Origin: Patescibacteria group bacterium
GTDB taxonomy: Bacteria; Patescibacteriota; Saccharimonadia; CAILAD01; JADZBC01
Assembly: GCA_052034495.1 (NCBI GenBank)
Contig: JBPOIL010000018.1
Coordinates: 1-63,450, forward strand
Direction: 5' to 3'
DNA: 63,450 bases
Shown in pieces: positions 35,677 to 63,450 of the stretch (within the stretch, counting starts at the first letter, position 1; every line of letters starts with the position of its first letter). The notes beneath the pieces are model-generated. The model did no database searches, was not told the DNA's origin, and worked only from the letters and a program-made list of their open reading frames with translations. A program made the translations under genes and the position numbers.

Positions 35677-35705
35677 TTGACTTATCCTCGGCCAGTCTCT
35701 ACAAT
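35677..35705 (+). promoter_or_regulatory. Candidate 16S rRNA promoter (TTGACT-17-TACAAT)
   Basis: Hexamers at 35677-35682 and 35700-35705, about 245 nt upstream of the mature 16S 5' end. Confidence 0.55.
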
Positions 35706-35948
35706 AGTAAGGTCTTGATACTTCGTTATCGCTCAAAATAAACAGCGACTCGATCATTCGGTCTCCTGACTGAACCAAATCGACAAAAAGGTTGCTGATT
35801 TTATTTTGACTCTATTGCGCTAGTCAAGCACGAACTACTTTGACAAGTGAATAGTGCTAGTAACACCTTGTTATTAAATGGGTCTGACTACTCCTTCGGG
35901 AGAGTCAGTCAATTTCTGTGAATATTGCTTTTCAAAGAGTAATAAACT

Positions 35949-37454
35949 TTTTTGGAGAGTTTGATCCTGGCTCAGGATTAACGCTGGCGGTATGCCTAAC
36001 ACATGCAAGTCGAACGGAATACTCGAAAAGAGAATCTCACACTAGTGAGAGGTTCTCCAACCGAGTATTTAGTGGCGGACGGGTGAGTAACACGTTGGAA
36101 CCTGCCCCGAAGTGGGGAATAACTGCTCGAAAGAGTAGCTAATACCCCATAGTATCCGGTTTATCCGGATTAAAGATTTATCGCTTCGGGAGGGGCCTGC
36201 GTCTGATTAGCTTGTTGGTGAGGTAAAAGCTCACCAAGGCGACGATCAGTAGCTGGTTCGAGAGGATGACCAGCCACACTGGGACTGAGATACGGCCCAG
36301 ACTCCTACGGGAGGCAGCAGTGAGGAATCTTCCACAATGGACGAAAGTCTGATGGAGCAATACCGCGTGCAGGACGACGCTTTTCGGAGTGTAAACTGCT
36401 TTTGTCGTCGAAGATTATGACTGTAGACGAAGAATAAGGACCGGCTAACTACGTGCCAGCAGCCGCGGTAATACGTAGGGTCCAAGCGTTATCCGGAATT
36501 ACTGGGCGTAAAGCGTACGCAGATGGCGTGATAGGTAAGTTGTGAAATCTTGTGGCTCAACCATATAGACTATGACTTAAACCATCACACTAGAGGTTGG
36601 TAGAGGCAAGCGGAATTTCCGGTGTAGCAGTGACATGCGTAGATATCGGAAGGAACACCAATGGCGAAGGCAGCTTGCTGGGCCACACCTGACGTTAAGG
36701 TACGAAAGCGTGGGGAGCGAACGGGATTAGATACCCCGGTAGTCCACGCCGTAAACGATGGATACTAGTGGTATGGAGATTCGACCCTCTGTGTCACGAA
36801 GCTAACGCGATAAGTATCCCGCCTGGGGAGTACGAACGCAAGTTTAAAACTCAAAGGAATTGACGGGGACCCGCACAAGCAGTGGAGGATGGGGTTTAAT
36901 ATGACGCTAAGCGTAGAACCTTACCGAGGCTTGACATCCTGGGAAGTCGATCGAAAGATTGATGTGCCTTCGGGAACCCAGTGACAGGTGCTGCATGGCC
37001 GTCGTCAGCTCGTGTCGTGAGATGTTGGGTTAAGTCCCGCAACGAGCGCAACCCTTGTCGTCTGTTGTATTTTCAGGCGAGACTGCCCGGGCCAACCGGG
37101 AGGAAGGTGAGGACGACGTCTGGTCGGCATGGCCCTTACGCCTCGGGCTACACCCGTCCTACAATGGCTGGTACAACGCGTCGCCAAGTCGCAAGACGGA
37201 GCTAATCGCACCAAAACCAGTCCCAGTTCGGATTGGGGGCTGAAACTCGCCCCCATGAAGTCGGAATTGCTAGTAATGGCAGGTCAGCTATACTGCCGTG
37301 AATACGTTCCCGGGTCTTGTACACACCGCCCGTCAAATCACGAAAGTTGGGAGTGCCCGAAGTACCCTTTTGGGTCCTAAGGTAAGTCCAGCGATTGGGG
37401 TTAAGTCGTAACAAGGTATCCGTACCGGAAGGTGCGGATGGATCACCTCCTTTC
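35949..37454 (+). rRNA. rrs: 16S ribosomal RNA (complete, about 1.5 kb, no large insertion)
   Basis: AGAGTTTGATCCTGGCTCAG at 35956, GTGCCAGCAGCCGCGGTAATAC, GGATTAGATACCC, ...GGATCACCTCCTTTCT at the 3' end. A 21-bp flanking processing stem pairs 35843-35863 with 37641-37661 (1 mismatch). Confidence 0.97.
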
Positions 37455-37667
37455 TAGGGAGTATCGATGCAGCAATGCATTCCATAGCAGCAAGGCTATG
37501 GCCAGAAGACTCTTGTTTAAGAGCTGCTCACTTCGGTGGGATGTGCTCACTTGAGTCCTTTGCGGAACTTCTAGGTCGAGCATTATGTCTTTAGGGGCAT
37601 AATGTTGTTACTAAAATTCCCTGTAGGTAATCAAGGCTGTTTACTAGCACTATTGACTTGTTAAATC

Positions 37668-60002: not shown

Positions 60003-62509
60003 TATTAGTTAAGAACGAGCAACCGAGCATGAGTAAACAAACTACTACCGGAGGCGCTAAGGCCTAAGCACTTGTTTGTTCCTGCTTGGTCGCCTCGAAG
60101 CCCTGCTTCATAAGCGGCCATTTTTTGTTCATTGAAATATGAATACTAACAAGGGTAATACAATTACACCAAAAGAAGACAATTTGATATTTTCAAATTG
60201 TCAGTCAAAATGTTCAAACGAGTTAAGAAGTTACTTAAGAGCACATGATGAATGCCTTGACGTGATACGCCGAAGAAGGTCGTAGAAGGCTGCGATAAGC
60301 CCCGGGGAGCTGCCAATCAAGCTTTGATCCGAGGATAACCGAATGGGGAAACCCGGCTAGGGTAATGCCTAGTCACCCTATGATGAATATATAGTCATAG
60401 TGGAGGGCACCCCCCGAACTGAAACATCTAAGTAGGGGGAGGAGAAGAAAACAACCGTGAGTCCCAAAGTAGTGGCGAGCGAAATGGGATCAGCCAAAAC
60501 TTATTCGCTTCCTGTAGTACCTGTACGTAACCAATTAGTTTACTAGTTGGAGCAGTATAGACAACGCAGGTTACCTCAATAATAGCGAAGAGGGTTGCGA
60601 GGTATTGACGAATATTTTGCGTTTTAGTATTTGGTCACTATGGACTTGTTCCTTAGTTACCAATTGCTAAGCGCTAAGTATGACCACCGATGAGGATCGA
60701 GTGGATAAAGTTACAAAACAGATTTGTTAGAAGAAGGAGCCTGGAAGGGACCGCCAAAGAGCGTGATAGCCGCGTATTCGAAAACACTCTGTCTTTATGT
60801 CAATATACTCAAGTAGGTCGGGACACGTGAAACCCTGACTGAATCTGGGAGGACCACCTCCCAAGGCTAAATACGTATCATGATCGATAGTGAACGAGTA
60901 CCGTGAGGGAAAGGTGAAAAGAACCCCGTAAGGGGAGTGAAATAGAATCCTGAAATCATGTGCTTACAATGAGTGGGAGCCGGCTTGTCCGGTGACCGCG
61001 TGCTTTTTGTAGAACGATCCAGCGAGTTAATGTATACGGCGTTAGGTTAAGTCTTTTTCAAGATGGAGCCGTAGTGAAAGCGAGGGTTAATAGCCCGAAT
61101 TAGTCGTATGTATTAGACCCGAAACCGGGTGACCTAACCATGGGCAGGCTGAAGCTTCGGTAAAACGGAGTGGAGGGCCGAACCACCGCACGTTGTAAAG
61201 TGCTTGGATGACCTGTGGTTAGCGGAGAAATTCCAATCGAACCCGGAGATAGCTGGTTCTCCTCGAAATAGCTTTAGGGCTAGCGTCATAAACTACTGCT
61301 CGGAGGTAGAGCACTGAATGGGTTAGGGCCGTTTACGGTACCACGCCCAACCAAACTCCGAATGCCGAGCAAGACTATTATGGCAGTCAGAAAGTGGGAG
61401 CTAAGTTCCATTTTCGAAAGGGAAACAGCCCAGACCGCCGTCTAAGGTCCCAAAGTCATAGCTAAGTGGGAAACGAGGTGAGATTGCATAAACAACCAGG
61501 ATGTTGGCTTAGAAGCAGCCATGCATTTAAAGAGTGCGTAACAGCTCACTGGTCAATCGTGATCTTGCGCGGAAAATATATCGGGGCTAAAGCTATGCAC
61601 CGAAGACGCGGATTGTCTACATTTGTAGATAGTGGTAGAGGAGCGTTCCTCACGCACTGAAGTCAAACCGTGAGGTTTGGTGGAGTGTGGGGAAGTGAGA
61701 ATGCTGGAATGAGTAACTATAAGGTAGGTGAGAATCCTACCCACCGTAAGACCAAGGTTTCCTGGGCAACGTTTATCGTCCCAGGGTTAGTCGGGCCTAA
61801 GCCGAGGCGAGTAGCGTAGGCGATGGACAACAGGTTGATATTCCTGTACCGGCTGTATTGTTCCCAGACAAGACGCAGGATGGTAGCTAGAGCGGTTTCA
61901 TGGCTATAGCCGTCTAAGCAGGTAGTCACGTAGTAATACGTGGTGAGACGCGAATGAAATCCTAGCAATAGGAGATTCTAGCAAGCCAAACTGACTAGAA
62001 AATTGTCTGATTAATAGATACAGTCGCCCGTACCGATAACCAACTCAGGTGGTCGGGTCGAGTAGACCAAGGTGCTCGGGAGAACCCTCGTTAAGGAACT
62101 CGGCAATATAGCGACCGTAACTTCGGGATAAGGTCTGCCGGGGCGTACCACAGTGACTTCAATGTCGCTGATTGGTAATGTAGGTTTTGCCTACAGTGCT
62201 TAGAGGTATTCTTTGTGCAATGAACATTTGCACTCAGTAATACAAAACCAATCCAGTTAGGGATAAATCTTAATCCCTAACAGCAGAGACATTGGATTCA
62301 ACTGTGGTGCGTCTCGGCCGCAGCGAAAGAACCCATGCGACTGTTTATCAAAAACACAGGTTTGTGCGAACACGAAAGTGGATGTATACGAACTGACGCC
62401 TGCCCAGTGCTGGAAGGTTAAGTGGCGTTGTGCAAGCAGCAAAATGAAGCCCCAGTAAACGGCGGCCCTAACTATAAGGGTCCTAAGGTAGCGAAATTCC
62501 TTGTCGGGT

Positions 62510-63238
62510 AAGACAAGGAGTCTGCAGACATAAGCAGATTTGAACTTGCCCATCCTGGCTAATAACGGTGAAACCCTATTGCTTGTACGTATGATATTCG
62601 CTATATTAGCAGTATTATGCATAACAGCAAGGGCAATACCGTGGGAAGTCGCTTCAATGGCATTGAAGTTGACCCCGTAACGACTGCACCACAGGGTGCG
62701 ATGGTAGGACTCTACTCACATGAGTAAATCTAAAGCTACCATAATACGCCGGGCTCAAAGTGTTAGTAACCCCTACTTTCCAGTCTACCTTTCAGGTTTT
62801 GCTGATGGTGAAGGATGCTTTATGGTATCTGCCGCCCCACGCGAAAGTTTAAAAGTTAGATGGGAATTGCGACCAAGCTTTTCTGTTAGTCAGAACGGTG
62901 ATCGCGCACAAGTTCTTACGATGATGAAAGACTATTTTGGATGCGGTTCAATCCGCCCAGATAGGTCTGACAAGACTCTAAAGTACGAAGTACGATCATT
63001 AACAGATTTGATTACTAAGGTAATCCCTCATTTTGAGAGATATCCTCTGTTGTCAGCAAAGCAAGCAAGCTTTATAGGGTTTCGTGATATCTGTTATGCA
63101 ATGCAACAAGGAGAGCATCTCTCACCTGACCGCATTGGTAGCCTTATCACGTTAGCATCCTCCTTAAACCAGGGGAAGCGCAAATACATCTTTGGGAAGA
63201 TATAGTCTGGTCCTGTGAGTAATCACAGATAACGGATT
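62510..63238 (+). mobile_element. Group-I-type intron in 23S domain IV carrying a LAGLIDADG homing-endonuclease ORF
   Basis: The conserved 23S sequence CCTTGTCGGGT | AAGTTCCGACC is split by about 729 nt. The chosen boundaries give a U at the 5' splice site and a terminal intron G. Because AAG is duplicated at both junctions, the boundaries are ambiguous by 3 nt. Confidence 0.75.
62720..63205 (+). CDS. LAGLIDADG homing endonuclease (single-motif, I-CreI-size)
   Basis: YLSGFADGEGCF motif near the N-terminus, 161 aa, located inside the rRNA intron. Confidence 0.85.
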   Translation: MSKSKATIIRRAQSVSNPYFPVYLSGFADGEGCFMVSAAPRESLKVRWELRPSFSVSQNGDRAQVLTMMKDYFGCGSIRPDRSDKTLKYEVRSLTDLITKVIPHFERYPLLSAKQASFIGFRDICYAMQQGEHLSPDRIGSLITLASSLNQGKRKYIFGKI

Positions 63239-63450
63239 GAAGTTCCGACCTGCACGAATGGCGTAACGATATGGGTACTGTCTCAACGAGGGACCCGGTG
63301 AAATTGCAATAGCGGTAAAGATGCCGTTTACCCGCACCAAGACGGATAGACCCCGTGCAGCTTTACTACAGCTTGGCATTGTGTCCGGTCTTACTTTGTG
63401 TAGCATAGGTGGGAGACTTTGAAGCATTGACGCTAGTCGATGTGGAGTCG

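Follow-up and report, generated by a model that had tools for sequence, protein, structure and literature searches.

In a canonical rRNA (rrn) operon of the E. coli or B. subtilis type, the 16S, tRNA-Ile, tRNA-Ala, 23S and 5S genes are carried on one transcript. Unlinked rRNA genes have been defined as those in which 16S and 23S lie more than 1500 bp apart, and the Patescibacteria are a clade in which this unlinked state is conserved (Brewer et al., 10.1101/705046, later ISME J); the unlinked pairs of that survey are scattered, with a mean distance of ~410 kb (Brewer et al., 10.1101/705046). Closer to the locus described here are the oral Saccharibacteria, in which the interval from 16S to 23S contains protein genes ‘in various orientations’ together with tRNA-Ala(TGC) and tRNA-Ile(GAT) (Murugkar, Collins, Dewhirst 2020, PMC7651992). 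The order of these tRNAs varies, the locus holds 1-5 proteins and a gene for a phylum-specific 79 aa protein follows 16S (PMC7651992). A third spacer tRNA, Val-TAC, occurs in ‘most all oral taxa’, and the locus is still termed an operon (PMC7651992). Here we analyse a window of 63,450 nucleotides, the whole of contig JBPOIL010000018.1 (C30 below) from a Patescibacteria group bacterium, in which the rRNA genes and their two tRNA genes are spread out along one strand and separated by many protein genes.

We located the RNA genes of the window with Rfam models and ARAGORN. A complete 16S gene (35949-37453; RF00177, 1502.7 bits, model positions 1-1533) is followed by tRNA-Ile(GAU) (41830-41906), tRNA-Ala(UGC) (46998-47074) and a 23S gene (60224-63450) that runs off the contig at model position 2188 of 2925. 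All four genes are on the + strand, the two tRNA genes are 5.1 kb apart and the gap from the end of 16S to the start of 23S measures 22,770 bp. An earlier note on this DNA had claimed this order on the + strand and a separation of about 22.8 kb, and both claims are borne out, with its coordinates off by at most 1-3 nt. C30 belongs to an 885-kb, 36-contig, 98%-complete metagenome-assembled genome (MAG) that contains one 16S, one 23S and one 5S gene and a single copy each of tRNA-Ile(GAU) and tRNA-Ala(UGC). The chance that two single-copy tRNAs would fall in the gap with the correct order and strand is about (22.8/885)^2 x 1/8, or ~8e-5. The earlier note had asked whether a second, compact rrn operon exists and where the 5S gene lies. 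We found no such operon in this 98%-complete MAG, where a collapsed repeat remains conceivable, and closed relatives likewise have a single 16S. The 5S gene (C14:92505-92611, -) lies 183 nt beyond the 3′ end of 23S (model positions 2528-2925), at the end of contig C14. Because the 23S leader on C30 (~60194-60221) is complementary to a trailer on C14, the two contig ends are parts of a single 23S-5S unit. Between the end of C30 (63450) and that of C14, ~340 model positions of 23S (2188-2528) are absent; they fall in a region of frequent intron sites in the Candidate Phyla Radiation (CPR), and a further insertion may have broken the assembly there. The locus is the single rRNA locus of a Saccharibacterium (class Saccharimonadia, CPR/Patescibacteria).

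The best explanation of the locus as a whole, and one that we consider highly probable on the evidence of its sequence, is that an ancestral rrn operon has been split into separate, still collinear units whose spacers have since grown. An operon of 16S, tRNA-Ile, tRNA-Ala, 23S and 5S would have been taken apart, with order and orientation kept, into three kinds of unit: 16S, equipped with a promoter, processing stem and terminator for itself alone; the two tRNAs, each followed by a terminator-like hairpin; and 23S-5S, which likewise has a separate promoter, leader and processing stem. Because such units would no longer depend on a single transcript, the spacers may tolerate foreign and duplicated DNA. 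In this lineage the spacer would have grown to 22.8 kb by duplication of a DUF4214 surface-protein family (five copies, ~8 kb), by insertion of GC-rich cassettes and one element resembling a miniature inverted-repeat transposable element (MITE), and by relocation or gain of other genes (pyrF-like, MgtE, cytochrome b5-like, SLT and adenylate-kinase-like). Uncoupling would thus have come first and growth second, an order of events that we infer.

Predicted signals for transcription and processing accompany each part of the locus. A promoter-like element, TTGACT-17-TACAAT, lies 244 nt upstream of 16S (35677-35705, +; 10/12 in a consensus scan). Downstream of it, the 5′ arm of a processing stem, which includes a boxA-like stretch (~35838-35862, +), is complementary to a 3′ arm beyond 16S (37643-37667, +), and directly 3′ of this stem a hairpin between an A-tract and a T-tract (37668-37700, +; dG -19.4 kcal/mol) has the shape of an intrinsic terminator usable in both directions. 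The flanking stem and the terminator-shaped hairpin that the earlier note had pointed to are real; the stem is ~25 bp long. The hairpin recurs: in all five genomes of the same order, a hairpin and T-run are found 207-274 nt past 16S, right after the 3′ arm of the stem, in the same place and with a different stem sequence each time. A post-16S hairpin with a T-run is also present in ~13 of 18 further genomes of the class, including those with compact 1.0-1.6 kb loci (G132, G088, G100 and G102).

The tRNA genes are similarly equipped. The tRNA-Ile(GAU) unit (41763-41946, +) comprises a promoter-like element (41763-41791), the tRNA and a terminator-like hairpin (41927-41946), and the tRNA-Ala(UGC) unit (46909-47101, +) comprises a TTGACA hexamer at 46909, the tRNA and a terminator-like hairpin (47083-47101) followed by a T-run. 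Before 23S there is, as claimed earlier, a promoter-like element, TTTACA-17-TAGTAT with a TG (59973-60001, +), 251 nt upstream of the gene, and it aligns with equivalent hexamers across the class: the hexamers TTTACA or TTGACC and the motif TGnTAnnnT align in most genomes examined, across families. The 23S leader (60002-60223, +), which is conserved in the alignment across the class, contains a conserved ATGAGTAAACAA block, a hairpin, a boxA-like TTGTTCATTGAAA and the 5′ arm of a processing stem (~60194-60221), so that 16S and 23S each have a separate stem. In addition, the gap holds five minus-strand genes, one of them divergent from 23S. From the conserved post-16S hairpin, the class-wide promoter-like element and leader of 23S, and the five opposite-strand genes, we infer that 16S, tRNA-Ile, tRNA-Ala and 23S-5S are separate transcription units, and the earlier impression that the parts look independent is supported to that extent.

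Comparison with relatives indicates that the order of the genes is not coincidental. Five genomes of the same order have 16S and 23S on one contig, with gaps of 5.2, 8.1, 9.9, 20.7 and 35.7 kb, and in each 16S comes first on the same strand. We also examined the 20 kb downstream of 16S in a further 20 genomes from eight other families of the class, using blastn and ARAGORN; in all 19 with enough sequence, 23S lies downstream on the same strand at 1.0-15.9 kb. Thus all 25 class genomes in which a single contig carries both genes have 16S upstream of 23S on the same strand, and their gaps form a continuous range from 1.0 to 35.7 kb in which that of the window is the second largest. tRNA-Ile(GAU) and tRNA-Ala(UGC) are inside the gap in 24 of these 25 genomes. 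Their strand and order vary, with all four combinations occurring within the window’s own order, and in most relatives they are on the opposite strand. The same-strand order Ile-then-Ala is found in the window, in G050 (6.2 kb gap, tRNAs 2.1 kb apart), in G132 (compact, 1.0 kb) and at locus L014, and the lineages with this order fall on either side of the midpoint root of a 16S tree. This fits a tRNA order retained from the ancestor, with repeated local inversions elsewhere. The possibility raised in the earlier note, that unrelated arrangements in relatives might reduce the order to chance, is answered by the 25 collinear genomes and by the Ile-Ala order in three distant lineages. Its description of the locus as a notable intermediate needs tempering: the full order is indeed kept, but gap sizes in the class grade continuously from 1 to 36 kb, and the presence of protein genes in the Saccharibacteria rrn locus has already been published (PMC7651992).

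Around and within this variable interval, tblastn against the relatives outlines a conserved frame. Its 5′ part runs gyrB, gyrA, methyltransferase, DUF212, 16S, a small protein on the minus strand and the tRNAs; its 3′ part runs through PrsW (a gene of the relatives), a ferric-reductase-like gene, a hydrolase, UppS (likewise of the relatives) and variable large secreted proteins to 23S.

One source of the growth of the gap is the DUF4214 family. The five paralogs in the gap share 34-47% amino-acid identity, and two distantly related, DUF4214-like members are found immediately beyond the 23S-5S unit (C14:87976-90316, -); all seven members flank the rRNA genes and none is found elsewhere in the genome. 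Among these genes there are a tandem unit of ~2.28 kb and common upstream sequences (direct repeats D1, D3 and D6), and we therefore attribute their number to local duplication. Three of them have in common an upstream block of ~46 nt containing TATTATGCTTATGCTAA (39643-39688, 51269-51314 and 52330-52375), which is probably a common promoter or leader that was duplicated along with the genes. The equivalent place before 23S in relatives is occupied by other large secreted proteins (fn3, beta-helix, GH5, GH114 and giant open reading frames (ORFs) of up to 2032 aa), and the gap of G007 contains an rve-family transposase. Duplicated tRNA 3′ ends, which would mark site-specific integration, were not found at up to 3 mismatches, and so a classical tRNA-targeted island is not supported.

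Turnover in the gap is clearly faster than in its flanks. The 27 kb upstream of 16S contain 20 ORFs of 90 aa or more; 18 of these have a collinear homologue in one or more of four relatives, and 16 in three or more. Downstream of 5S, most of the ORFs at a distance of 6-21 kb are also collinear with the four relatives. Within the gap, 2 of 21 ORFs are common to relatives, in addition to an 86-aa protein. Windows of at least 60% GC make up 16.9% of the gap versus 3.2% of the remaining large contigs, a difference of approximately fivefold. The gap is a clear turnover hotspot, yet it is not unique, and this leaves room for a different interpretation, in which the gap is one tolerated site among several and no preferred target, with genes coming and going genome-wide. 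In relatives there is a second variable site ~6 kb upstream, between an 842-aa gene and gyrB; the window has 0.1 kb there, whereas G016 and G007 have 2-4 kb, G022 has 10 kb and G025 has 17 kb. In addition, 96 of the 111 windows of at least 60% GC in large contigs fall outside the gap. Such an interpretation is possible and we take it seriously, but we think it rather doubtful, given that almost all genes are collinear over 27 kb upstream and 15 kb downstream while ~90% of the gap genes are lineage-specific, that the size of the gap varies 36-fold in the class and that GC-rich windows are about five times denser within it. The earlier suggestion that the rrn spacers are preferred landing pads for new DNA is accordingly right about turnover, which exceeds that of the flanks, and overstated otherwise: about one-third of the gap is the duplication of one family, the pre-gyrB site is also variable, most GC-rich islets of the genome are elsewhere and some gap residents are old, namely the small membrane protein, the ferric-reductase-like gene and the dienelactone hydrolase. 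A giant ORF of ~2142 aa occupies positions 7-6435 (+) of the window; four relatives have no equivalent of it within 40 kb upstream of their 16S.

Several observations weigh against a split operon with independent units and a spacer that has since grown. The promoter-like element of 23S scores just 9/12, rRNA antitermination complexes might read through the predicted post-16S hairpin, and that hairpin in relatives also ends a convergent small-protein gene and may be kept for that gene. In addition, same-genus MAGs break inside 16S and do not include the gap, so lineage-specific insertions cannot be dated; the survey comprises 25 genomes, and its 16S tree is rooted at the midpoint only. A different possibility is a locus that is still one very long operon, in which antitermination carries transcription from the 16S promoter through the tRNAs and protein genes to 23S. 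About 17 of 22 gap genes and all four RNA genes are on the + strand, and boxA-like stretches occur in both leaders. We nevertheless regard a single long operon as very improbable, because a predicted terminator is conserved after 16S and a predicted promoter and leader are conserved before 23S, because five minus-strand genes are interspersed, one directly upstream of 23S, and because each tRNA is followed by a hairpin and the tRNAs are on the opposite strand in most relatives.

That the arrangement was created in assembly, by a misjoin of the metagenomic contig within conserved rRNA sequence, is hardly credible: the 36-contig MAG does include several small contigs of foreign composition and same-genus MAGs do break inside 16S, but on both sides of 16S the gene order agrees with that of relatives, a closed genome among them. 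Moreover, the leader of 23S on C30 is complementary to the C14 trailer, and the gap has the composition of the backbone apart from its islets. Many contigs of 2.5-17 kb (C1, C2, C8, C11, C12, C15, C17 and others) have a GC content of 21-26% or 71-73%, compared with ~50% for the backbone, and are probably binning contaminants.

If the split-operon explanation is extended from the window to the class, the rRNA ‘operon’ of the Saccharimonadia would be transcriptionally dismantled yet collinear, with an early uncoupling that made the spacers a permissive sink, into which different lineages would have taken surface-protein genes, cassettes and transposons. We offer this broader proposal tentatively, as one that falls only a little short of an even chance. 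Uncoupling first is suggested because even compact 1-kb loci carry a predicted terminator after 16S and a promoter-like element before 23S. The conservation of same-strand order within 36 kb in 25 of 25 genomes, despite repeated inversion of the tRNAs, would then point to selection on order, orientation or proximity that is independent of co-transcription. Whatever the history, methods based on long amplicons spanning 16S, the internal transcribed spacer (ITS) and 23S will miss these organisms, and short-read MAGs of the group break at the locus. The class provides a graded natural series, from 1 to 36 kb, of what is lost and what is kept as an rRNA operon comes apart, and shows which genes accumulate beside the rRNA genes of an epibiont; in the window and its relatives, large proteins that are secreted or at the surface predominate. 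The window by itself is only an extreme example, and the value lies in the comparative pattern.

Using Pfam matches and a check of the coding strand, we count ~21-23 plausible protein genes in the gap, fewer than the 25 or more ORFs claimed earlier; five DUF4214 paralogs are among them, members of the family that the earlier note had recognized. The interval from 16S to tRNA-Ile contains two DUF4214 genes (37771-41411, +; 619 aa with a NAGPA domain, and 564 aa) and an 86-aa two-helix membrane protein (41477-41737, -). The two DUF4214 genes have no counterpart in the gaps of relatives and are a lineage-specific insertion between the 16S terminator and the gene for the small membrane protein. 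The latter is a conserved gap resident across the class: tblastn matches were obtained in five of five relatives of the order, hidden Markov model (HMM) matches in families f10, f17 and f28, and an hhalign probability of 92.6% against ORFs of 79-81 aa at the same place in family f11. It was not found in same-genus genomes, and all five same-genus or same-family MAGs are without the gap. From its place, size and strand, this is probably the ‘79aa protein’ of the oral Saccharibacteria (PMC7651992).

Between tRNA-Ile and tRNA-Ala are a 208-aa ORF (-), a GC-rich island, an AAA_33 kinase-like gene (45903-46490, +) and a helix-turn-helix gene (46513 to ~46900, -). The island (42950-45800, +; 60-64% GC) contains a pyrF-like orotidine monophosphate (OMP) decarboxylase gene (43075-43989) and 3-4 small ORFs. 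Its genes finish in near-identical (91-96%) modules of 85-90 nt (44003-44091 and 44893-44980; repeats D9 and D10), and 42992-43023 similarly matches 44119-44174. We rejected the pyrF-like gene as a conserved gap resident; its homologues in relatives (up to 61% identity) are far from the rrn locus.

The last interval, from tRNA-Ala to 23S, begins with MgtE, a ferric-reductase-like flavoprotein and a cytochrome b5-like gene (47161-50221, +). The mechanically called ORF of MgtE (46908-48428) overlaps tRNA-Ala, and its start is most likely at 47161. The flavoprotein gene (48429-49751, +) is, by tblastn, also in the gap of three of the five order relatives and of G050. A MITE-like dispersed repeat of ~430 nt follows (50238-50685, no strand assigned), with terminal inverted repeats of ~17 nt (CTCTA.CC.GACCTTGGA). 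A copy with 88% identity is at C13:6311-6701 and partial copies exist; contigs C13, C18, C19 and C6 all contain a core of ~100 nt, which is also present many times, on both strands, in every same-genus genome. No Rfam model matched this repeat. Beyond it are an SLT-domain gene, three DUF4214 genes (starting at 51331, 52400 and 54681) and a 178-aa minus-strand ORF (together 50771-57151, listed as +), then a GC-rich ORF, a dienelactone hydrolase gene (58041-58733, +), found by tblastn in the gap of five of five order relatives, and a GC-rich adenylate-kinase-like gene (59228-59896, -; GC content at third codon positions 0.79) that is divergent from 23S. Apart from the GC-rich islets, the gap has the composition of the backbone. 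The earlier observation that most high-GC islets of the window are in the gap is confirmed, since every 1-kb bin of the window with at least 58% GC falls inside it.

The 23S gene itself is interrupted by a 731-nt group-I-like intron (62510-63240, +), inserted after ...GGGUAAG in domain IV and containing a LAGLIDADG_1 endonuclease ORF (62720-63205, +; PF00961, E 2.3e-25). The match to the Rfam model Intron_gpI covers the whole model, a loop accommodating the ORF, and at 18.8 bits (E 0.033) is below the gathering score of 50. In relative G015, an insertion of 387 nt is found at this alignment column. The intron resembles the CPR 23S introns of Tsurumaki et al. 2024 (PMC11270868) in its ...GGGUAAG site in domain IV, its LAGLIDADG_1 ORF and its AAGAUAUAGUCU core, and its position, ~E. 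coli 1951/1952 by our own count, is one of their LAGLIDADG_1 sites. Because Saccharibacteria are the exception in that study, with 64 of 66 insertions short and without intron or endonuclease (Tsurumaki et al. 2024, PMC11270868), the intron of the window is a rare case in this group.

How, then, does this locus compare with known arrangements? With the canonical rrn operon it has in common the order and orientation of the genes, an RNase III-type stem for each rRNA, boxA-like leader elements and the linkage of 23S to 5S. It differs in its 22.8 kb of protein genes, in the opposite-strand genes and, as predicted from sequence, in the terminator after 16S and the separate promoter of 23S; instead of short spacers free of protein genes and internal terminators, there are ~22 genes, five of them on the other strand. 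By the definition of Brewer et al., the rRNA genes are unlinked, with 22,770 bp between the closest edges of 16S and 23S, and exclusively so, as the only 16S, 23S and 5S genes of the genome leave no linked copy elsewhere. Like the unlinked genes of that survey, they are single-copy, more than 1500 bp apart and found in a host-dependent bacterium with a small genome; unlike them, the pairs of the Saccharimonadia keep the ancestral order and a common strand over distances of 1-36 kb, and the spacer tRNAs are still found between them. The closest match is the locus of the oral Saccharibacteria (PMC7651992), with which the window has in common both tRNAs in the interval and a homologue of the small protein between 16S and the tRNAs. 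In the window, however, there are ~22 protein genes over 22.8 kb and not 1-5, the small protein is 4 kb from 16S and the tRNAs are 5.1 kb apart. tRNA-Val(TAC) is on C13 at 257346 and not in the gap, a location inside the gap being seen in our survey only in part of family f11. Furthermore, whereas the published locus is described as an operon, the signals in the window argue for separate units. The phenomenon is thus already known, and the window is a large example of it that keeps the canonical order.

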